A stretch of 57,353 nucleotides of DNA from Gallaecimonas xiamenensis 3-C-1 (GCF_000299915.1 NZ_AMRI01000027.1:1-57353), one strand, 5' to 3'; positions 7,730-57,321 are shown, counted from the stretch's first letter. The notes: generated from the sequence alone by a model not told the origin. Program-made: numbers and translations.

Positions 7730-7916
7730 CTTGTCATCTCCTTATCAAAAGCCGCCCCGACACTATCACAACCCCCTGTTTTTGGCAGCCAGGGGCCTGT
7801 TGTGGCGGGGCTGGTGCTTTGTTAAACTAGCGCGCCCCTTGCCGGACCCGGCAGGAGGATCGATCGGTTTCTTGGTCGCGGGAAGCCGATAACTTACTTA
7901 TTTTTGGAGTAATACC

Positions 7917-8522
7917 ATGTCTTATATTTTTGAAGCAGAACTCCGTACTGACCTGGGGAAAGGTGCGAGCCGCCGCCTGCGTCGTGAGGAAAAAGTACCT
8001 GCTATCGTTTACGGTGCTGACAAAGAGCCGGTCTCCATCGCCCTGGATCACAACAAAGTGATCGAAGCCCAGGCCGAAGAAGGTTTCTACACCCACATCC
8101 TGACCCTGAACATCGCCGGTGCCAAAACCGAAGTTCTGGTTAAGGACATGCAGCGCCACCCCTATAAGCCGAAAGTCACCCACATCGACTTCCTGCGCGT
8201 AGACGCTTCCCACAAAGTGGTCACCAAAGTGCCCCTGCACTTCGTTGGTGAAGAAGCTGCTACCAAGAAAGGCGGCGTAGTTGCCCGTCTGGCTTCCGAA
8301 GTGGAAATCACCTGTCTGCCCAAAGACCTGCCTGAGTTCATCGAAGTGAACGTAGCCGGTCTGGAAGTAGGCGCTACCCTGCACCTGACCGACCTGGCCG
8401 TACCTAAAGGTGTTGCCCTGGTTGAGCTGGCTAAAGGCGAAGACCACAACCAAGCCGTATTCTCCCTGAACGCTCCTAAAGGCGGCGTCAGCGAAGAAGC
8501 TGAAGGTGAAGCTGCTGAGTAA
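7917..8522 (+). CDS. rplY: 50S ribosomal protein L25 / general stress protein Ctc
   Basis: Full-length L25/Ctc with an acidic C-terminal tail. Conserved rplY-pth-ychF synteny. Confidence 0.9.
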   Translation: MSYIFEAELRTDLGKGASRRLRREEKVPAIVYGADKEPVSIALDHNKVIEAQAEEGFYTHILTLNIAGAKTEVLVKDMQRHPYKPKVTHIDFLRVDASHKVVTKVPLHFVGEEAATKKGGVVARLASEVEITCLPKDLPEFIEVNVAGLEVGATLHLTDLAVPKGVALVELAKGEDHNQAVFSLNAPKGGVSEEAEGEAAE

Positions 8523-8525
8523 AGC

Positions 8526-9110
8526 GTGAGCGATATTCAACTGCTTGTGGGCCTGGGTAATCCAGGCCCCGAATACGCCCAAACCCGCCATAATGCCGGC
8601 GCCTGGTATATCGAGGAGCTGGCCCGCCTTCACCGGCAATCCCTGACCCTGGAAAGCAAATTCTCCGCCTTCACTGCCCGCATTCAAATCAAGGGCAAGG
8701 ATGTGCGTTTGCTGGTCCCCACCACGTACATGAACCTCTCTGGCAAAGCCGTCGGCGCTTTGGCCAACTTTTACCGTATTCCGGTAGAGAGCATACTGGT
8801 GGCCCACGACGAGATGGACCTGCCTCCCGGGGTAGCCCGCTTCAAGCAAGGCGGAGGCCATGGCGGCCATAACGGCCTGAAAGACATCATGGCCAAGATG
8901 GGCAACAACCCGAATTTCCACCGGTTGCGTATCGGTATCGGCCACCCGGGAGACCGCAACAAGGTCACCGGTTATGTGCTGGGCAAGGCTCCGGCCGCCG
9001 AGCAAGAGCAGATCAACGCAGCCATAGACGAAGCCATCCGGGCCACCGACATTCTGTTCGACAGCGGTATTACCGCAGCCCAGAACCGGCTTCACGCCTT
9101 TAAGGCCTAA
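8526..9110 (+). CDS. pth: peptidyl-tRNA hydrolase
   Basis: GTG start. [21 protein letters not shown] motif of Pth. Confidence 0.9.
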
Positions 9111-9128
9111 ATTTTCGAGGAAGACTCC

Positions 9129-10220
9129 ATGGGATTCAAATGTGGCATTGTGGGCCTGCCCAACGTCGGCAAATCCACCCTGTTCAATGCGCTGACCAAG
9201 GCCGGCATCGAAGCCGCCAACTTCCCCTTTTGCACCATTGAACCCAACACGGGTGTGGTTCCGGTTCCGGATATCCGCCTGAACAAGCTGGCCGAGATCG
9301 TCAACCCCCAGCGGGTACTGCCCACCACCATGGAGTTTGTGGACATCGCCGGCCTGGTGGAAGGTGCCTCCAAAGGTGAAGGCCTGGGTAACAAGTTCCT
9401 GGCCAACATCCGTGAAACCGACGCCATTGCCCACGTGGTACGTTGCTTCGAAAACGACAACATCATCCACGTGGCCGGCAAGGTAAACCCGGCCGAAGAC
9501 ATCGACGTCATCAACACCGAACTGGTGCTGGCGGACATGGAAGCAGTAGACCGCGCCCTGACCCGGGTACAGAAAAAGGCCAAGGGCGGCGACAAGGAAG
9601 CCAAGGCCGAGCAGGACGTGCTGCTGAAAATTCAGCCGCACCTGGAAGCCGGTAAGATGCTGCGCTCCTTCGGCCTGAGCGCCGAAGAAAAGGCCGCCAT
9701 CGGCTACCAGAACTACCTGACCGGCAAGCCCACCATGTACATTGCCAACGTCAATGAAGACGGCTTTGAGAACAACCCTTATCTGGATAAGGTACGGGCC
9801 ATCGCCGCCGACGAAGACGCCATAGTGGTGCCGGTGTGCGCCGCCGTTGAGTCTGACATCGCCGAGCTGGACGACGAAGACCGCCAAGCCTTTATGGAAG
9901 AGCTGGGCCTGGACGAGCCGGGCCTGAACCGGGTGATTCGCGCCGGCTACGAGCTTTTGAACCTGCACACCTACTTCACCGCCGGTGTCAAAGAAGTGCG
10001 GGCCTGGACCATCAAGGTCAACTCCACCGCCCCCCAGGCGGCCGGTAAGATCCACACCGACTTCGAAAAGGGCTTTATCCGCGCCGAAGTGGTGGGCTAC
10101 GAGGACTTTGTCGCCAACAACGGCGAACAAGGAGCCAAAGAAGCCGGTAAATGGCGCCTGGAAGGCAAGGAATACATCGTCAAAGACGGCGACGTGATCC
10201 ACTTCCGCTTCAACGTCTAA
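9129..10220 (+). CDS. ychF: redox-regulated ribosome-binding ATPase YchF
   Basis: [19 protein letters not shown]-loop, TGS domain, 363 aa. Confidence 0.92.
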
Positions 10221-10615: not shown

Positions 10616-12505
10616 TTAGTCGCAGCTGCCCAGGTACCAGCTCTGGCCGTCGTCTGAATGCAGGGTGTTTACCCCCCAGGTAGAGCCGGCCATGGGCTGG
10701 TCGCTGCCGGTGGCAAAGTAGTCCGGCGCCAGGGGGTTGCCGGTGCTGTAGGCGCGGCCCGCCACCTTCTGGCTGTAGTTATTGGTGGTAAAGGTTTGGC
10801 AATCGCCGTCCCCTTCATCTGGGGGCGGCGTGCTGCTGCCAGAGCAGGCCTGCACCGGCCCCTGGCAACTGGCGTCATCGTCCTGCCAGCGGCACTGCTC
10901 GCCGCTGGTCACCTCACGCAGGGTAAAGCTCGCCGTGCCGTATTCGAGGTAACAATTGGCGTAATTGGTGTAGTCGAGGCGCCCGGCGCTGATGTGGCCG
11001 TCAAGGGTAGCGGTTTGGCCGGCGTCGATTGCAAAATCCAGTACCTGGCTGGTACTCAAGCCCCCGGCGTCGGTGGCGGTGACGGTAACGCTGTTGCTGC
11101 CTCCCGGCAGGTTGCAGCGCTGGCCGCTAAATTGGCTGGCGCTGATATCAGCATTTTGGGTGGCGCCAGCAAAGGCCAGGGTAACGGCGCTCAAATCCTC
11201 ATTCACATCCACCACGGTACCGGTCACCAGGGCGCATTGGCCGCTTACCGCCACATTGAGGTTGGACAGCACCGGGGCGCTGGCCGGTGGCGCCGGCCCT
11301 ACCCTGGCGCTGCCTTGGTAGAGGTTGCCGTCCAGGCCTTCGTCGTCGGTGGCGAGCACCGCCACCTGGTAAAGGTCATTGGCAAGGGCCGGGCTTTGCA
11401 GGCTAAAGCTGCCATCGGCCGCTACCGTGGCACTAGCAGATTGCTCGCTGCCATTGCTGGCCACAAAGCGGGCGCTGACGGCCGCCACGCTGCCCTCAGC
11501 ATCCACCGCCTTGCCGGTGACCAGGATGCGATCACCATTGACCCCCAGCGCCACGTTACTCAGCACCGGCCCCTGGTTGCGGCTGACCCTTTTGTTGTTC
11601 TCCATAAAGTAGCGGCCAAGATAGCGGGCGTAGTTGATGCTGGCGCCGTTGATGTAACTGCCGCTGGCACCCTCGCCGCCAGACCAAGCGTGGTCGACAT
11701 TGTTGAACCACAGCATGGATACCCGCCCGTCTCGCCACAGGCTTTGTTCGGCGCTGTGGCCGCTGCCTTCGCTGATAAGGGTGCTGCCCGGCAAGGGGCT
11801 GACCCCATAAAGGGCCGCCATGCCCTCGGCGTTTTGGCTGTTGTAACAGAGGTTGACGGTGCTATCGCTATCCCCTTGGGCGATGGAGGCGATTTGGCTG
11901 CCAAGATAGCTTTGGTAGCTGCCGGCGTATTGGCTACAGCGGCTGGCCACATCGGCGCTTTCACAGGGGCCAAGGGCGCCGCTGGAGCTGGTGCCGATGC
12001 TGGGCCCGGCGCTGATGCCCATGCCGGCAAAAACGTCTGGCGCCAGGCAGGCGGTGGTATTGGCAAAGCTGGCCCCAGACGACAGCCCGGCGATATAAAC
12101 CTGGTTGGCATCGATATGGCGGCTGGTATCCGCCACCAGGGCCTGGGCCAGGTTTATGAGGTTTTTATAGTCGCCGCTGCTGCGGGATTTGGTGCCGCTC
12201 CAGTAAGACCAGCAGCTAAAGCCGGCCTTGTTCATTGCGTCCGGCACGGCGATCACCAGGCCAAACTCCTCGGCGGCGTCTTCAAGGTTGGCGGTCAGAT
12301 AAGCGTCGATGGCCTGGGTGCAGCCATGCAATACCAGCAGCAGGCCACGGCCGTCGCCGATGCTCGACTGGCTGTCCGGGGTATAGATATGCACCTTGTT
12401 AAAGCCCCCCAGGCTTTGGTTTTTACTCCAGCTGCCGGCATAGGCCACGGCGCCCAGCCCCAGCCATAAGGCCAGAGCCAGTAGGATATCCTTCTTCGTT
12501 ATCAT
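10616..12505 (-). CDS. secreted PHB-depolymerase-family esterase with C-terminal Ig-like repeat and Cys-rich domains
   Basis: Signal peptide. GLSSGA (GxSxG) nucleophile elbow within a PHB depolymerase / esterase-like N-terminal domain. Thr/Ser/Gly-rich repeats and a Cys-rich C-terminus. Confidence 0.7.
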   Translation of the reverse strand: MITKKDILLALALWLGLGAVAYAGSWSKNQSLGGFNKVHIYTPDSQSSIGDGRGLLLVLHGCTQAIDAYLTANLEDAAEEFGLVIAVPDAMNKAGFSCWSYWSGTKSRSSGDYKNLINLAQALVADTSRHIDANQVYIAGLSSGASFANTTACLAPDVFAGMGISAGPSIGTSSSGALGPCESADVASRCSQYAGSYQSYLGSQIASIAQGDSDSTVNLCYNSQNAEGMAALYGVSPLPGSTLISEGSGHSAEQSLWRDGRVSMLWFNNVDHAWSGGEGASGSYINGASINYARYLGRYFMENNKRVSRNQGPVLSNVALGVNGDRILVTGKAVDAEGSVAAVSARFVASNGSEQSASATVAADGSFSLQSPALANDLYQVAVLATDDEGLDGNLYQGSARVGPAPPASAPVLSNLNVAVSGQCALVTGTVVDVNEDLSAVTLAFAGATQNADISASQFSGQRCNLPGGSNSVTVTATDAGGLSTSQVLDFAIDAGQTATLDGHISAGRLDYTNYANCYLEYGTASFTLREVTSGEQCRWQDDDASCQGPVQACSGSSTPPPDEGDGDCQTFTTNNYSQKVAGRAYSTGNPLAPDYFATGSDQPMAGSTWGVNTLHSDDGQSWYLGSCD

Positions 12506-12910: not shown

Positions 12911-14260
12911 ATGGCAACCAGGACAGAGCATGGTTGGTTACTGGAAGACCGTTGGGGGCGCAGCTACCTGTGCAGCCAGGGATTGCCCCGCCCCGACGCC
13001 CTCGACACCTGGCAACTGATCTGGCTGGACAGCCCAGGCCCGGCCGCCCAGTTTCTAGACGACCTAACCGATCTTGGCGACCTTGGCACTGAACTGGGTC
13101 TTGGGGGCCAGGGGGATGTCAGGGCCAGGCTGGTAAGCAAGCTGGTCAGGGGCGATCTGAAGGTATGGCAACTGCCCAATCCCTGGAACGAACCTGGCAT
13201 AGCCGGTGCCAGCGCCCTGTCCTCGGCGGAGGCCGACAGCCAGGATGCCCCCCGCCAGCAGCAGGCCGGCCCCAGCAGCGCCGCTGCCGCTGCGCCCTTG
13301 GCCCGGTTGGGTGACAACGCCGAGGCCCTGGCCGCCTTGGACCCCGTGGCCGCCCGCCAACAGCGCTACCAGGCAAGGCTTGGCCTTATCGATCAGACGG
13401 CCGGTATCCCAGAAGCCGCCGCCGCCAATGCCCGCCTGGCCTTTAACAACGACAATATCCTGCGGGCCGAAGCGGCCCAGTATGTTTACCGGGTTGACGA
13501 GTTCCGCCGGGGCGCCCTGGCCGAACTGCCGACGCCGCCGGTGGGCCTGACGCTGCTGGAAGGCAGCGATGTGCCCGGCATGGCCGGCGCCAACTTCTCC
13601 GATCCGGACAGCGGCTTCGGCGCCGCCCTGTTCGAGTCGCAAATCAACGGCGAAGTGATGCTCACCTACAGGGGCACCAACAACGCCGTGACCGGTAAAA
13701 AGGACTGGGCCACCAACTTCGCCCAGGGCATGGGCAAGGAAACCGGCCAATACAACCAGGCCATGGACCTGGCCAAGCTCACCAAACGGGCCCTGGGGGA
13801 CGACTTCACCATAGTGGGCCACTCCCTGGGGGGCGGCTTGGCGTCGGCCGGGGTTGCAGTGACAGGCCAACCCGGTTACACCTTCAACTCTGCCGGGTTG
13901 CATCCCAAGACCGCAGCGCGGCTGGGTGGCCTGAGCAATGCCGATGCCGGCAAGCTGATCCAGAGCCAGGCGGTGGACGGGGAGATCCTGACCATGGCCC
14001 AGAAATACGGCAACGCCGCTCTGAGTGGGCTGCTGGCCACAGCCGGCGGCCTCTTGGGTGGCCCCCTTGGCGCCGTGGCCGGCTTGCTGATCGGCGGCGT
14101 GTTGCCGGATATTCCCGAGGCCATAGGGAGTATCAGCCCCTTACCCAGCGTTCAGGGGGGCAACCCCATAGCCCGCCATGGCATGGATCAGGTGATCGCC
14201 GGCATCGAGTCCCAGAAAGCCGAAGACATCAGTACCCTCAGCGGTTTAGTGGGAGGATAG
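12911..14260 (+). CDS. alpha/beta-hydrolase lipase (class 3 lipase-like, GHSLGG) without signal peptide; candidate secreted effector
   Basis: GHSLGGGLA nucleophile elbow in the C-terminal half. ~200-aa N-terminal region of unknown function. Start chosen at the second ATG, behind GGGGAAGG. Confidence 0.65.
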   Translation: MATRTEHGWLLEDRWGRSYLCSQGLPRPDALDTWQLIWLDSPGPAAQFLDDLTDLGDLGTELGLGGQGDVRARLVSKLVRGDLKVWQLPNPWNEPGIAGASALSSAEADSQDAPRQQQAGPSSAAAAAPLARLGDNAEALAALDPVAARQQRYQARLGLIDQTAGIPEAAAANARLAFNNDNILRAEAAQYVYRVDEFRRGALAELPTPPVGLTLLEGSDVPGMAGANFSDPDSGFGAALFESQINGEVMLTYRGTNNAVTGKKDWATNFAQGMGKETGQYNQAMDLAKLTKRALGDDFTIVGHSLGGGLASAGVAVTGQPGYTFNSAGLHPKTAARLGGLSNADAGKLIQSQAVDGEILTMAQKYGNAALSGLLATAGGLLGGPLGAVAGLLIGGVLPDIPEAIGSISPLPSVQGGNPIARHGMDQVIAGIESQKAEDISTLSGLVGG

Positions 14261-14261
14261 G

Positions 14262-15062
14262 TTGAAACCCATAGGGATAATCATGGTATTGCTGGCCCTG
14301 GCCAGCTGCGGCCTCAAAGGAGACAGTATGAAGGCAACGGACTTTTTCAGCCCCCAGATGGTCACCTTGCTGGAGGACATTGCCCAGGGCAACCAGGGGG
14401 ACGCCCAGCAGAAACTGGCCGGCGGCCTGGACCTTAACAGCCGGGGCCAGGAGGGCATCACCCCCCTGTTCTGGCTGATGATGGAAAAGGACAAGGACGC
14501 CGTAAAAAGGGCGCTGCAACTGGGCGCCGACCCCAATTATCCTTCCTGCACCGGTAACACCCCGGTGGCGGCCGTGGCCGGCGGTAATGACGATGCCCTG
14601 CTGGCGCTGCTGCTGGACCAGGGCGGCGACCCCAATTCGGTCAACCAGAAAGGGGAGCCGGCTCTCTTTGAGGCCATAGGGGAAGAGCGCTGGTCCCAGG
14701 TGCAGATGTTGCTGGACCACGGCGCCGACCTGGACAAGCTGGACAACCTGCACCGCAACAGCGCCCTGTACGCCGCTACCCTCAACAAGTACGAGATCGC
14801 CTACAAGCTGGTGGAGCTGGGCGCCGACTACCGGCTGCGCAGCACGGTGGATGACGATATCGCCTGGAATATCCACGAAGGGCTCAGCCAGGGGCTGCTC
14901 AACCCCGCCTACCCCGCTTACGGTTGGGCCCAGAAGCTCAAAACCCTGCTGATAGAAAAAGGCGTGCAGTTCCCGCCTCTCTCACCCCGTGAGGTGAGGA
15001 TCAAAGAAGGCCGCCCCAACCGCTGGGACCTCAAGGCCCAGGCCAAGGAAAAGCAGCATTGA
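14262..15062 (+). CDS. ankyrin-repeat lipoprotein; candidate cognate immunity protein
   Basis: TTG start 1 nt after the upstream stop, with a GGAGGA SD inside the upstream gene. Lipobox LLALASCG. At least 4 ankyrin repeats (GITPLFWLMME..., GNTPVAAVAGGNDDALLALLLDQGGDPN...). Confidence 0.7.
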   Translation: MKPIGIIMVLLALASCGLKGDSMKATDFFSPQMVTLLEDIAQGNQGDAQQKLAGGLDLNSRGQEGITPLFWLMMEKDKDAVKRALQLGADPNYPSCTGNTPVAAVAGGNDDALLALLLDQGGDPNSVNQKGEPALFEAIGEERWSQVQMLLDHGADLDKLDNLHRNSALYAATLNKYEIAYKLVELGADYRLRSTVDDDIAWNIHEGLSQGLLNPAYPAYGWAQKLKTLLIEKGVQFPPLSPREVRIKEGRPNRWDLKAQAKEKQH

Positions 15063-27503: not shown

Positions 27504-28907
27504 ATGGACGCCCAGCCCCTTTGCAACCTGACCTTCGACGAGCTGGCCCTGGGCCAGAGCGCCAGCCTGACCCGCACTTTGACCCAGCACGATATCGACC
27601 TCTTTGCGGTGATGTCCGGGGACGTCAACCCGGCCCATATGAACCCCGACTACGCCAAGGCCAGCCTCTTTCATGGCGTTATCGGCCACGGCATGTGGTC
27701 GGGGGCCCTGATTTCCACCGTGCTGGGTACCCAGCTGCCCGGCCCCGGCACCATCTACCTGGGCCAGGACATCCGCTTTTTAAAACCGGTGCACGTAGGG
27801 GATACCATCACTGTCACCCTCACCGTCAAGCACAAGGCCACCGGCAAGCCCCTGGTGGAATTTGACTGCCAATGCCATAACGGCAAGGGCGAGCTGGTGG
27901 TGGCAGGCACCGCCACTGTGCTGGCCCCCACCGAGCACCTGCGCCTGCCCCGCCCGGTATTGCCCCAGGTGGAGCTGTACCAGGACCACTACCAGGACAT
28001 TCTGGCCCGCTGCCGCACCCTGGGAGCCGTCAAGACCGCCCTGGTGCACCCGGTCAACGGCGCCGCCCTGGCCGCCGCCCTGGAAGCGGCCGCCGAAAAC
28101 CTCATCGAACCTGTGCTGGTGGGCCCCAAGGAGCGGATCCTGGCTGCCGCCCGCGACAACAACATCGATATCAGCCCCTGGCAACTGATTGACGTGGAGC
28201 ACAGCCATGCCGCTGCCGCCAAGGCGGTGGAGCTGGCGGCCAGCGGCCAGGTGGCCGCCATCATGAAAGGGGCCCTGCACAGCGACGAACTGCTGGGAGC
28301 CGTGGTCAAAGGCAGCGGCGGCCTGCGCACCGAAAGGCGCATCTCCCATGCCTACATCATGGAAGTGCGGGGCTACCCCAAGCCCCTTATCATCACCGAC
28401 GCCGCCATCAACATCGCCCCCACCCTGGAAGAAAAGGCCGATATCTGCCAGAACGCCATCACCCTGTGGCACACCCTGTTCGGCCACCATCGCCTGCCCA
28501 AGGTGGCGCTGCTGTCGGCGGTGGAAACCGTCACCAGCCGCATGGCCTCTACCCTGGACGCCGCCTGCCTTTGCAAGATGGCCGACCGGGGCCAGATCAG
28601 CGGCGCCCTGCTAGACGGCCCCCTGGCCCTGGACAACGCCATCAGCCCCCAGGCCGCCCGGGAAAAAGGCATCGACTCGCCGGTAGCCGGTGACGCCGAC
28701 ATCCTGGTGGTACCCGACATCGAAGCGGGCAACATGCTGGCCAAGCAACTGACCTTCCTGGGCCAGGCCAACGCCGCCGGCATAGTGCTGGGGGCCAGGG
28801 TGCCCATCATCCTCACCAGCCGCGCCGACAGCCTGCGTACCCGATTGCTGTCCTGCGCCACCGCCGTGTTCCTGTCCGCCGCCCGCCAGCAGGGGGACCT
28901 GAAATGA
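27504..28907 (+). CDS. bifunctional MaoC-like (R)-specific enoyl-CoA hydratase (PhaJ-like) :: phosphate acyltransferase (Pta/Ptb-like) fusion
   Basis: N-terminal ~150 aa hot-dog MaoC domain (..SGDVNPAHMNPDYAKASLFHGVIGHGMW..). C-terminal ~320 aa PTA_PTB domain. Confidence 0.8.
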   Translation: MDAQPLCNLTFDELALGQSASLTRTLTQHDIDLFAVMSGDVNPAHMNPDYAKASLFHGVIGHGMWSGALISTVLGTQLPGPGTIYLGQDIRFLKPVHVGDTITVTLTVKHKATGKPLVEFDCQCHNGKGELVVAGTATVLAPTEHLRLPRPVLPQVELYQDHYQDILARCRTLGAVKTALVHPVNGAALAAALEAAAENLIEPVLVGPKERILAAARDNNIDISPWQLIDVEHSHAAAAKAVELAASGQVAAIMKGALHSDELLGAVVKGSGGLRTERRISHAYIMEVRGYPKPLIITDAAINIAPTLEEKADICQNAITLWHTLFGHHRLPKVALLSAVETVTSRMASTLDAACLCKMADRGQISGALLDGPLALDNAISPQAAREKGIDSPVAGDADILVVPDIEAGNMLAKQLTFLGQANAAGIVLGARVPIILTSRADSLRTRLLSCATAVFLSAARQQGDLK

Positions 28908-30022
28908 CCCAGGCCCTGTTGGTGCTCAATACCGGCTCGTCCAGTGTCAAATTCCGGGTCTTTGCCCTGGCGCCGGGGCTGGCGCTGCTGGCCGGTGGCA
29001 AGATTGAAGATATCGGCAGCGGCGCCAGCATCAAGGCCAATGTGGCTGGCGGCCAGGCCACCCTGGGAGCCCTGCCCGAGGTCAAGGACCACGACCAGGC
29101 GGTATCGCTGATGCTCGATTGGCTGGACAGCCACAACAGCGGCTGGCAGCTGGTGGCCTGCGCCCACCGCATCGTTCACGGCGGCGACCGCTACCAGCAG
29201 GCCACAGCCTTGGACGAGGCCGCCCTCGATTACCTGGCGGGGCTGACCCCCCTGGCCCCCCTGCACCAGCCCCACAACCTGGCCGGGGTGGCGCTGGTGG
29301 CGGCAAGGCGCCCCGGCCTTCGCCATTACGGCTGCTTTGACACCGCCTTTCATGCCCGCCACCAGCCCCTGTTCAACCGCTATGCCCTGCCGGACCGCCT
29401 CTTTGAGCGGGGCATACGCCGCTACGGCTTTCATGGCCTGTCCTACGACTGGCTGGCCCATTGCCTGCGCCAGGAATACCCGGCCCTGGCCCAAGGCAAG
29501 GTGGTGGCCGCCCACCTGGGTAACGGCGCCAGCCTCTGCGCCATGGCTGGCGGCGCCAGCGTCGACACCACCATGGGCATGACCGCCCTCGAAGGGCTGC
29601 CCATGGGCACCCGCTGCGGCAACCTGGACGCCGGGGCGGTGTTTTTCATGGTCAAGGATCTGGGCATGGCCCTGGCCGAAGCCGAGCGCCTGCTCTATGA
29701 AGAGTCGGGCCTCAAGGGGCTGTCGGGGATCAGTAACGACGTCAAGGTACTGCTGGCAAGCGCCGAGCCCAGGGCCCGTTTTGCCCTGGATTTTTTCGCC
29801 CTGAAAGTGGCCCAGCAGGTGGCGGCCATGGCGGTGTCCCTGGGGGGGCTGGACGCCCTGCTCTTTACCGGCGGCATAGGGGAAAACGCCGCCCCCATCC
29901 GCCGCCAGATCCTAAGCCACCTGGCCTTTTTACCGCCCTTTGCCCACCTGGTGATCGCCGCCAATGAAGAGGCCGCCATGGCCACCGAGATCCTCGAAGG
30001 CTTTGCCAAGGAGCTGCTATGA
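28904..30022 (+). CDS. acetate/propionate/butyrate-family acyl kinase
   Basis: LVLNTGSSSVKF N-terminus and ASKHA-fold motifs. Start overlaps the upstream stop (ATGA). Confidence 0.8.
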   Translation: MTQALLVLNTGSSSVKFRVFALAPGLALLAGGKIEDIGSGASIKANVAGGQATLGALPEVKDHDQAVSLMLDWLDSHNSGWQLVACAHRIVHGGDRYQQATALDEAALDYLAGLTPLAPLHQPHNLAGVALVAARRPGLRHYGCFDTAFHARHQPLFNRYALPDRLFERGIRRYGFHGLSYDWLAHCLRQEYPALAQGKVVAAHLGNGASLCAMAGGASVDTTMGMTALEGLPMGTRCGNLDAGAVFFMVKDLGMALAEAERLLYEESGLKGLSGISNDVKVLLASAEPRARFALDFFALKVAQQVAAMAVSLGGLDALLFTGGIGENAAPIRRQILSHLAFLPPFAHLVIAANEEAAMATEILEGFAKELL

Positions 30023-30777
30023 CCCGTCCCCTGTGCGGCCTGATCGTCGGCCTGGCCAACAATGAGTCCATTGCCTTTGGCTGTGCCAAGGCCCTAAAGG
30101 CCATGGGCGCCCAGCTGGCCGTCACCTACCAGAGCGACAAGGCCAAGCCCCATGTGGCGCCCCTGGCCAGCGACCTGGAGGCGGATATCTTTTTGCCCCT
30201 GGATGTGCGGGACGAGGGCCAGATGCAGGCGCTGTTCCAGACCCTTGGCAGCCGCTGGGGGCGGCTGGACTTTGTGCTCCATTCCATCGCCTTTGCCCCC
30301 AAGGCCGACCTGCAGGGGCGCTTTGTCGACAGCTCGGCGGCGGGCTTTACCACGGCCATGGACATCTCCTGCCATTCCCTAGTGCGCCTGGCCCGCTACA
30401 GCGAGCCGCTGATGGCCGAGGGCGGCGCCCTGCTGACCATGAGCTATTACGGGGCCCAGAAGGTGATTGCCAACTACAACCTGATGGGGCCGGTCAAGGC
30501 GGCCCTGGAAGCCAGCGTCCGCTACCTGGCGGCCGAACTTGGCCCCAAGAACATCAGGGTCAATGCCCTGTCCCCCGGCCCGGTGCTGACCCGCGCCGCC
30601 TCTGGCCTGGCCCATTTTGACCAGCTGATGGCCCAGGCCGCCGCCAAGGCGCCCCTGCACCAGCGGGTGTCCATCGACCAGATAGGGGAAGCGGCAGCCT
30701 TTTTATTGTCGGACAAGGCCCGTCATATCACCGGCCAGGTGCTGATGGTGGATAACGGCGTCAGCGCCCTTGGCTAA
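30019..30777 (+). CDS. fabI: FabI-family enoyl-[acyl-carrier-protein] reductase (NADH)
   Basis: HSIAFAP, NYNLMGPVKAALEASVRYLA and RVNALSPGPVLTRAASG align with the E. coli FabI catalytic Tyr/Lys region. Start overlaps the upstream stop. Confidence 0.75.
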   Translation: MTRPLCGLIVGLANNESIAFGCAKALKAMGAQLAVTYQSDKAKPHVAPLASDLEADIFLPLDVRDEGQMQALFQTLGSRWGRLDFVLHSIAFAPKADLQGRFVDSSAAGFTTAMDISCHSLVRLARYSEPLMAEGGALLTMSYYGAQKVIANYNLMGPVKAALEASVRYLAAELGPKNIRVNALSPGPVLTRAASGLAHFDQLMAQAAAKAPLHQRVSIDQIGEAAAFLLSDKARHITGQVLMVDNGVSALG

Positions 30778-57151: not shown

Positions 57152-57228
57152 GGCTATGTAGCTCAGTTGGTTAGAGCACATCACTCATAATGATGGGGTC
57201 GCAGGTTCAAACCCCGCCATAGCCACCA
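57152..57228 (+). tRNA. tRNA-Met (elongator, anticodon CAU)
   Basis: GGCTATGTAGCTCAGTTGGTTAGAGCACATCACTCATAATGATGGGGTCGCAGGTTCAAACCCCGCCATAGCCACCA. Near-identical to E. coli metT. Confidence 0.9.
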
Positions 57229-57236
57229 TGAACAAT

Positions 57237-57321
57237 GCGGAAGTGGCGAAATTGGTAGACGCACCAGATTTAGGTTCTGGCGCCGCGAGGCGTGAGAGTT
57301 CAAGTCTCTCCTTCCGCACCA
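57237..57321 (+). tRNA. tRNA-Leu (anticodon UAG)
   Basis: GCGGAAGTGGCGAAATTGGTAGACGCACCAGATTTAGGTTCTGG..CCGCACCA. Long variable arm. Matches E. coli leuW. Confidence 0.9.

Follow-up and report, generated by a model that had tools for sequence, protein, structure and literature searches.

What does a bacterium do with a predicted toxic lipase that has an immunity-like partner but no secretion apparatus beside it? The question is raised by a 57,353-bp contig of Gallaecimonas xiamenensis 3-C-1, the whole of which constitutes the window analyzed here. On its plus strand lie a gene for a 449-residue lipase-like protein (12911..14260), identical (100%) to the database entry WP_008486117.1, and directly downstream a gene for an ankyrin-repeat lipoprotein (14262..15062). 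A sequence-only reading of the window had left two options, an orphan cargo effector of a type VI secretion system (T6SS) with its immunity protein or an antibacterial lipase secreted by another route. Our analysis sides with the first option rather than the second, and we consider the two genes likely to be an orphan T6SS cargo effector–immunity pair, unlinked to the apparatus, of the Tle6/Tli6 family. The evidence consists of homology to a characterized Tle–Tli pair, conservation of functional residues, lipase–ankyrin synteny that persists while the carrier domain is swapped, an internal start in the immunity gene, the distribution of the lipase's N-terminal domain (Ntd) and its adjacency to vgrG elsewhere, and an Hcp encoded by the strain.

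The lipase and its ankyrin-repeat partner

The open reading frame (ORF) of the tle6-like effector gene, which ends with its stop codon at 14260, contains two possible in-frame ATG codons (12890/12911..14260, +). We place the start at ATG 12911, which is preceded by GGGGAAGG, because full-length relatives align from that Met and because the NCBI record is 449 residues long. The protein divides into an Ntd (residues 1–95, 12911..13195), a linker (residues 96–147, 13196..13351), and a Tle6-type alpha/beta-hydrolase phospholipase domain (residues 148–449, 13352..14257). An AlphaFold2 (AF2) model has a mean predicted local distance difference test (pLDDT) score of 75.9, with most of the lipase part above 85. 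The linker is of low complexity, rich in Ala, Ser, Gln, and Pro, and unalignable across homologues, and it is predicted to be disordered, with pLDDT below 50 at residues 91–140. An N-terminal region of ∼200 residues without an export signal had been proposed. The missing signal stands, since the Kyte–Doolittle (KD, window of 11) maximum over residues 1–50 is only 0.63 and the absence of a hydrophobic stretch there leaves no Sec, Tat, or lipoprotein signal; a Sec/Tat-secreted lipase is rejected on this ground. The extent of the region does not stand, as it resolves into a domain of ∼95 residues and a linker of ∼50, with the lipase beginning at residue ∼148.

When searched with phmmer against all PDB sequences, the protein has a sole match, 7ubz_B (E 1.7e-28, query residues 148–443 against 13–309 of 313), and the best Foldseek match of the lipase model is 9cys_A (E 7e-15, TMt 0.73, 29% identity). 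Both entries, 7UBZ and 9CYS, are the T6SS lipase effector–immunity complex of Enterobacter cloacae, for which Jensen et al. named the group Tle6 (bioRxiv 10.1101/2023.03.28.534661; PMC11470151), and they are the only solved relatives of the window pair. The next Foldseek matches are fungal feruloyl esterases and class-3 lipases, the same fold neighbors that were reported for E. cloacae Tle (PMC11470151). The class-3 lipase label given to the protein from its sequence is in this respect borne out by the fold; as a family assignment it gives way, because Pfam Lipase_3 (PF01764) reaches 15.5 bits where 22 are required and covers the elbow at residues 287–312 only, while PF26363, the precomputed "Phospholipase-like" family, fits better and Mbeg1-like/DUF2974 (PF11187) gives a marginal, partial match (21.9 bits vs a cutoff of 21.1, residues 234–316). 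Membership in Tle1–5 is rejected: there is no Tle1-like catalytic domain match, Lipase_3, the Tle2 type, scores too low, and the authors of Tle6 place it outside all of Tle1–5 (PMC11470151).

The residues that matter in E. cloacae Tle are present. Its catalytic Ser341/Glu393/His448 and its methylglyoxal crosslink residues Arg180, Lys461, Glu458, and Gln460 (PMC11470151) map, by the printed alignment and the published numbering, to Ser305 (13823–13825), Glu358 (13982–13984), and His423 (14177–14179) and to Arg156 (13376–13378), Lys436 (14216–14218), Glu433 (14207–14209), and Gln435, respectively. Ser305 lies in the GHSLG nucleophile elbow, GHSLGGGLASAG, that had already been recognized in the 449-residue protein. 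All of the mapped residues are invariant in an alignment of 22 homologues except Glu358, which is at least 90% conserved. By this alignment, Arg156, Lys436, and Glu433 correspond to the conserved residues of the activating methylglyoxal (MODIC) Arg–Lys crosslink. A hydrophobic Gly-rich segment, AALSGLLATAGGLLGGPLGAVAGLLIGGVLPDIP, lies between Glu358 and His423 (residues ∼362–401, 13994–14113); its KD(11) reaches 2.4, its pLDDT is low at residues 378–397, and every close homologue has it. A role as a lid or as a loop that inserts into the membrane is conceivable.

The tli6-like immunity gene encodes a 266-residue protein and starts at a TTG (14262) one nucleotide past the TAG stop of the lipase gene (14258–14260). 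Its Shine–Dalgarno (SD) sequence, GGAGGA (14252..14257), falls within the last codons of the lipase gene, an arrangement that implies translational coupling; both the TTG and the SD had been noted beforehand and are confirmed. The protein begins MKPIGIIMVLLALASC, with a KD(11) of 3.1 and a signal peptide at residues 1–15 that precedes the lipobox Cys16 (14307–14309). Pfam finds ankyrin repeats (Ank_2 3e-15, Ank 5e-11), and residues 23–240 match the E. cloacae Tli chain 7ubz_A (E 6e-20, 3–227 of 230), so that the description as an ankyrin-repeat lipoprotein holds. The 99-nt direct repeats seen at the locus are the ankyrin repeats themselves, and no flanking repeats pointing to a mobile element were found around the pair.

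In E. cloacae, a cytosolic form of Tli made from internal starts (Met10/16/24) is needed to activate Tle, and the lipoprotein form confers immunity (bioRxiv 10.1101/2023.03.28.534661). The window gene carries a candidate second start of the same kind, an AAGGAG (14317–14322) followed after 5 nt by the ATG of Met23 (14328–14330). Met23 is invariant in the alignment with nine homologous ankyrin proteins, which are 41–50% identical to that of the window. In 10/10 ankyrin genes, including those annotated from a later start, a lipobox Cys is followed 7–8 codons on by this Met, and in all ten a purine-rich, SD-like run lies 5–8 nt upstream of it (−5 to −12); examples are AAGGAGacagtATG (window, 14317–14330), GGGAGGAcacagtATG (Pectobacterium), and TAGGAGGAcacagtATG (Aeromonas). 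Such conservation suggests that a dual lipoprotein/cytosolic Tli is kept across the Tle6 family. The crosslink Arg, Lys, and Glu, the lipobox, and the internal SD and ATG are retained in both carrier-fused (PAAR) and cargo versions, which lends support to the proposal that immunity-dependent activation by glycation may be general in Tle6. As far as sequence can tell, the toxin and the immunity protein agree with Tle6/Tli6 in every respect, and the pair is a member of this already described family (2023–24).

The arrangement of the relatives shows a toxin that changes carriers. The lipase domain (residues ∼150–449) is 55–65% identical to the C-termini of PAAR proteins from Pectobacterium, Dickeya, Aeromonas, Shewanella, and Brenneria, and at the same level it is found at the C-terminus of DUF4150 proteins, in a Rhs fragment of Vibrio vulnificus, and in one VgrG fusion. 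The order in Pectobacterium and Aeromonas is hcp-vgrG-PAAR∼lipase-ankyrin (one to three copies)-DUF4123-Rhs, beside tssM/tssA. The window protein itself is called a "PAAR repeat-containing protein" in UniRef (UniRef100_K2J245), a name that we regard as a transfer error from the PAAR-fused homologues because no PAAR domain is present. A specialized PAAR effector was considered and rejected, as there is no PAAR (PF05488) or DUF4150 match at E ≤ 0.1 and the N-terminus cannot be aligned with the PAAR of two fused homologues (P0027/P0119). The same non-PAAR N-terminus precedes the lipase at five loci, namely those of the window, Rheinheimera sp. NSM, Thalassomonas viridans, Halovibrio salipaludis, and a JGI metagenome; a metagenome scan with one such Ntd-lipase (P0012) gave no match. 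The ankyrin gene lies directly downstream at 5/5 of these loci, and a homologous ankyrin gene immediately follows the lipase in all homologue loci examined, so that no examined homologue is without its partner.

A housekeeping or anti-eukaryotic function was also considered, in which the lipase would have an ankyrin chaperone and no part in interbacterial antagonism. Many effectors directed at eukaryotes contain ankyrin repeats, NCBIfam returns partial matches to Legionella Ank proteins, and a polyhydroxybutyrate (PHB) depolymerase and other genes for lipids and polyhydroxyalkanoate (PHA) are nearby. However, the Legionella scores are far below cutoff (43.7 vs 600 bits), for which reason a Legionella-type Ank effector is rejected, the ankyrin protein is a full-length Tli homologue with a lipoprotein signal, and the neighboring genes are not kept beside the pair in other genomes, those of the five Ntd-lipase loci being different from one another. 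We regard such a role as very improbable.

An array of related immunity-like genes is seen in Aeromonas, where three tandem paralogous ankyrin genes follow one PAAR-lipase gene (L004/L005, 9473–11739) and in-frame lipoprotein signals lie upstream of the called start in 3/3. The trio looks like an immunity gene array.

The N-terminal domain and its ties to a T6SS

If the lipase belongs to a known family, how it would be delivered presumably depends on its Ntd, which is 21–31% identical to the N-termini of the other non-PAAR lipases and has no match in Pfam-A, NCBIfam, or the PDB. A profile built from 11 N-termini of non-PAAR lipases was searched against 1.84e9 representative proteins and retrieved 83 clusters, 52 of them at E ≤ 1e-10, with protein lengths of 87–1467 residues. 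The match begins at residues 1–21 in every cluster but the weakest. Pfam analysis of proteins from 57 of the 83 clusters identified at least 12 different toxin families attached to the Ntd, among them Endonuclease_NS_2, Colicin-DNase, WHH, EndoU, deaminase, TNT, RES, Ntox46, VasX_N, and a Tle1-like phospholipase; many of the 57 have no C-terminal Pfam match. So many different toxins behind one N-terminal domain are the signature of a polymorphic-toxin delivery domain. A phage origin is rejected, as no BFVD match was found at E < 1.

About 20 of the 83 clusters are only 87–148 residues long and essentially consist of the Ntd (e.g., P0138, P0146, P0149, P0150, P0157, P0164, P0165, and P0169, with further short, nearly Ntd-only clusters in P0171, P0174, P0177, P0179, P0185, P0187, P0192, and P0199). 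These may be contig-end fragments, pseudogenes, or adaptors that act on their own, of which RIX and MIX offer described examples. The Rheinheimera proteins (L013–L042) carry, at positions ∼103–122 of the linker that immediately follows the Ntd, a nearly invariant Gly-rich motif, GWGxPPEGNGIGDGGLAP, whatever the C-terminal toxin. The Gallaecimonas, Thalassomonas, and Halovibrio versions lack this motif, which may provide a second site for docking or translocation.

A typical Ntd is ∼100–110 residues long and, in a Rheinheimera model (pLDDT 80), forms a small alpha/beta domain made of a beta-hairpin, four to five helices, and a final strand; its features are G..Y[LAF].[SC] near the start, Y[AG].Q.L, Y..PW, and L.V[WYF] at the end. 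The Gallaecimonas version is shorter. A leave-one-out hidden Markov model (HMM) aligns with it at 35.8 bits in two pieces, HMM positions 4–54 and 83–108, from which it follows that the central helix with the most conserved motif, Y..PW, is missing. One could then suppose that the module is decaying or domesticated, its Ntd damaged by an internal deletion, its lipase not or poorly secreted, and the locus kept mainly for ankyrin immunity against the Tle6 of neighbors. T6SS-bearing bacteria commonly carry orphan immunity genes, and the loss of the Y..PW helix agrees with the idea. So does the need for E. cloacae Tli in the periplasm against incoming toxin (PMC11470151; bioRxiv 10.1101/2023.03.28.534661). 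Yet the ORF of 449 codons is unbroken, none of the six catalytic and crosslink residues has been lost, translational coupling persists along with the dual Tli start, AF2 still folds the shortened Ntd (pLDDT 65–87), and a second assembly carries a 449-residue copy that is at least 90% identical (P0453). On balance we think decay unlikely.

A tie between the Ntd and a T6SS comes from other genomes, where an Ntd gene lies 3–25 nt downstream of vgrG at four independent loci (L009/L010, L011, L049, and L050). In a complete Psychromonas-like T6SS cluster (L009/L010), the gene for an Ntd protein (P0152) begins 3 nt after vgrG, and the gene order in L009 is tssC-impE-tssE-tssF-tssG-clpV-hcp-vgrG-[Ntd gene]-337aa-PAAR-...-Rhs. 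A second Ntd protein (P0163) has the same arrangement, the upstream fragment being identified by tblastn as the C-terminus of a VgrG. A metagenome search with a Halospina-type VgrG added two more loci, one (L049) with clpV-hcp-vgrG, a gap of 25 nt, a 338-residue Ntd protein (E 1.8e-23), and a 178-residue ORF, and another (L050) in which vgrG is followed by an Ntd protein (E 2e-26). Between the Ntd effector and a small PAAR gene, L009 (12277–13290) and L011 (2118–3143) encode proteins of 337–341 residues that are 37% identical to each other, have a hydrophobic N-terminus, and lack a Pfam match. Each may be the immunity protein of the adjoining Ntd effector.

These clusters in turn lead back to Gallaecimonas. 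The Hcp of the L009-type cluster is 82% identical to WP_008483602.1, an Hcp encoded elsewhere in G. xiamenensis 3-C-1, on a contig of 154 kb, so that the wider search for T6SS genes that the sequence-only reading had called for does find one in this genome. A literature search for Gallaecimonas together with T6SS, or for the accession of the lipase, found nothing. Other close homologues of this Hcp occur in three further Gallaecimonas species, in Thalassomonas, and in a Halomonadaceae/Halospina/Salicola cluster. The matching VgrG is ∼600 residues long and has a blunt C-terminus, ...I(S/K/T)LN, beyond which there is no extension; it is present in Thalassomonas viridans, T. actiniarum, Rheinheimera baltica, R. 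fenheensis, Rheinheimera sp. MMS21-TC3, and Arsukibacterium, and in T. viridans it is on the same chromosome as the orphan lipase–ankyrin pair. The Ntd-carrying taxa Gallaecimonas, Thalassomonas, Rheinheimera, Arsukibacterium, and Halospina/Halomonadaceae thereby show the same Hcp/VgrG type. In addition, the longest ENA contig is exactly 13,889 bp for each of an Hcp (P0445), a VgrG (P0433), and an Ntd-lipase (P0012), which suggests that the three share one hcp-vgrG-Ntd∼lipase contig.

A different function for the Ntd was weighed against this evidence. It might serve a route other than a T6SS, as the receptor-binding or translocation module of a colicin- or pyocin-like bacteriocin with a disordered Gly-rich linker, or the pair might be cargo of another contractile injection system. 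All Rheinheimera and Arsukibacterium copies and the five Ntd-lipase loci are free-standing bicistrons like those of S-type pyocins, a disordered linker follows the Ntd and is Gly-rich in Rheinheimera, many partner toxins are colicin-type nucleases, and fusions of the Ntd to PAAR or VgrG number 0/83 clusters. The four independent vgrG-adjacent loci, inside or beside T6SS clusters, are difficult to reconcile with such a route, as are the T6SS-typical partners VasX_N, Tle1-like, and Tle6 and the shared Hcp/VgrG subtype of all Ntd-carrying taxa; the window, moreover, has no lysis gene or other secretion genes. A non-T6SS route therefore strikes us as improbable.

For the Ntd itself, we lean, with only slightly better than even confidence, toward a previously undescribed T6SS delivery ("marker") domain that would place cargo on the blunt-ended ∼600-residue VgrG used by a single marine T6SS subtype. 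The proteins that bear it in Rheinheimera, Arsukibacterium, Thalassomonas, Psychromonas-like bacteria, Halospina/Halovibrio, and Gallaecimonas would then form a new class of polymorphic effectors, most of them orphan. A corollary would be that immunity-dependent glycation activation and a dual-start Tli are general to the Tle6 family whatever the carrier.

Several observations weigh against assigning the pair and its Ntd to a T6SS. The contig carries no T6SS gene, and the link comes from homology and from other genomes: tblastn with Hcp, VgrG, PAAR, TssA/E/F/G, ClpV, and DUF4123 found nothing in the whole window, and Pfam analysis of its 25 larger ORFs returned housekeeping functions only, with no Tss or adaptor gene. 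The lack of vgrG, hcp, PAAR, and adaptor genes that had been pointed out within 10 kb of the pair hence extends to the entire contig. No T6SS genes lie within 8–10 kb of the five Ntd-lipase loci either. For G. xiamenensis, the T6SS component demonstrated is Hcp, not VgrG or a full cluster. When genome contigs were scanned with a Rheinheimera-type Ntd alignment, T6SS genes were found within 10 kb of the Ntd gene at 0/34 Rheinheimera/Arsukibacterium loci (up to three loci per genome); all 34 orphan loci fit orphan cargo effectors, but they offer no positive T6SS link, and one metagenomic study implies that its Rheinheimera metagenome-assembled genome is without a T6SS (PMC11651098). The Ntd-bearing proteins are so far known as sequences alone. 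Finally, the Gallaecimonas Ntd appears to lack ∼28 profile positions, and its competence for loading is uncertain.

Weighing both sides, we still favor the orphan T6SS pair. Secretion, VgrG binding, crosslinking, and enzymatic activity, which we infer for the Gallaecimonas proteins by analogy with their relatives, would then proceed as follows. Tli would be made in two forms, a periplasmic lipoprotein from the TTG start and a cytosolic form from the internal SD and ATG (Met23). The cytosolic form would bind newly made lipase and place Arg156 and Lys436 for a methylglyoxal-derived crosslink, tying helix alpha1 to the C-terminal helix and giving a competent but Tli-inhibited phospholipase A1; that Tli binding leads to an activating Arg–Lys crosslink has been demonstrated for E. 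cloacae Tle (PMC11470151). With its flexible linker of ∼50 residues, the Ntd could load the effector non-covalently onto the spike of a T6SS encoded elsewhere in the genome, the likeliest partner being the blunt-ended ∼600-residue VgrG of the subtype with a 159-residue Hcp. Fired into the periplasm of neighboring Gram-negative cells, the lipase would hydrolyze membrane phospholipids, and the periplasmic lipoprotein Tli would protect sister cells.

Surroundings of the pair

Divergent from the effector gene lies the gene for the secreted PHB depolymerase that had been recognized there, an extracellular enzyme with Ig-like domains (10616–12505, −; NCBIfam 3.4e-50). It adjoins the effector pair and is 13 kb from a PHA cluster (25379–30777, +) that encodes a PhaC synthase, a MaoC-dehydratase/phosphotransacetylase fusion, an acetate kinase, and a short-chain dehydrogenase/reductase of the enoyl-ACP reductase type.

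A tRNA-like gene at 22333–22404 (−) scores 46 bits with the Rfam tRNA model, and ARAGORN assigns it an abnormal 4-base "anticodon", gtta. It sits between a Band7/SPFH gene and a divergent rtcR-rtcB RNA-repair operon, and an RlaP gene is found at 20176–20934. In Salmonella, tRNA-like Y-RNA modules are known beside rtcBA, and the window gene may be related to such modules.

Long antisense ORFs of 279–791 residues lie at 7827–10202 (−), 10658–12469 (+), and 13064–13903 (−), opposite pth/ychF, the PHB depolymerase gene, and the lipase gene, respectively. None matches a family, and all three are shadow ORFs of the sort that DNA with 60–65% GC commonly contains, not genes. The GC fraction is 0.43–0.52 at the contig ends (1–3000 and 56000–57353) vs ∼0.62 elsewhere, and genes for tRNA-Met and tRNA-Leu are located at 57152–57321.

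Comparison with known systems

The closest characterized systems are E. cloacae Tle–Tli and Serratia marcescens Slp (Tle6; J Bacteriol 2023, Nat Commun 2024), which the window pair resembles in lipase homology, in the catalytic triad, and in the Arg, Lys, and Glu positions. It shares with E. cloacae Tle–Tli an ankyrin lipoprotein immunity protein of six repeats encoded immediately downstream, with internal starts after the signal peptide, in keeping with the statement that Tle6 lipases "invariably" have a cognate ankyrin gene downstream (PMC11470151). Unlike the orphan Gallaecimonas pair, the E. cloacae tle gene is in a T6SS locus beside vgrG. The Gallaecimonas lipase has a longer hydrophobic Gly-rich insertion (residues ∼366–401), and it is closer to the PAAR-fused branch of Pectobacterium, Dickeya, and Aeromonas (55–65%) than to E. 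cloacae Tle (29%). E. cloacae Tle is also described as having a "novel" N-terminal domain of its own, of ∼130 residues.

The lipases fused to PAAR, DUF4150, VgrG, or Rhs in Pectobacterium, Dickeya, Aeromonas, Shewanella, and Vibrio are specialized effectors that were given as relatives by Jensen et al. (bioRxiv 10.1101/2023.03.28.534661). They share the toxin domain (55–65% identity) and the ankyrin family (45–48%) with the window pair. They are covalently part of the spike and are encoded in hcp-vgrG operons, whereas in the Gallaecimonas lipase an unrelated Ntd takes the place of PAAR and the locus is unlinked. Tle1–Tle5 (Russell et al. 2013) likewise are periplasm-acting T6SS phospholipases with periplasmic or lipoprotein immunity proteins, and the GxSxG elbow is as in Tle1–4; the lack of a Tle1-like catalytic match and the subthreshold Lipase_3 score separate the Gallaecimonas lipase from them.

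The Ntd is best compared with MIX, FIX, RIX, PIX, and WHIX, which also stand N-terminal to interchangeable toxins, are followed by a downstream immunity gene, occur at both vgrG-adjacent and orphan loci, and are found in bacteria with particular T6SSs. RIX and PIX effectors are orphan and lineage-restricted, and PIX binds VgrG (PMC6688995, PMC10435454, bioRxiv 10.1101/2023.07.16.549128, PMC12135965). The differences are those of size and range: RIX is Arg-rich, 55 residues long, and confined to Vibrionaceae/Moritellaceae, PIX has 140 residues and is limited to the Enterobacterales genomes that its authors surveyed, WHIX is bipartite and ∼450 residues long, and FIX, of ∼80 residues, is also found behind PAAR and VgrG. 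The supplementary tables for PIX and RIX contain none of the Ntd taxa, nor the accession. The Ntd is thus not obviously MIX, FIX, RIX, or PIX, a distinction drawn from published sizes, taxa, and the PIX/RIX tables and not from sequence.

Should the Ntd prove to be VgrG-loading, it would help to find orphan T6SS effectors that otherwise go unseen in marine Gammaproteobacteria, perhaps with new toxin folds among them, and it could be mined for new toxins as RIX and PIX can. It is, besides, a further case to consider in asking why delivery domains are specific to a lineage or T6SS subtype. Measured against these systems, the pair alone is ordinary and adds a member to a family characterized in 2023–24; it is the Ntd, not the lipase, that makes the locus of interest, which represents a known effector family on a probably undescribed carrier domain.

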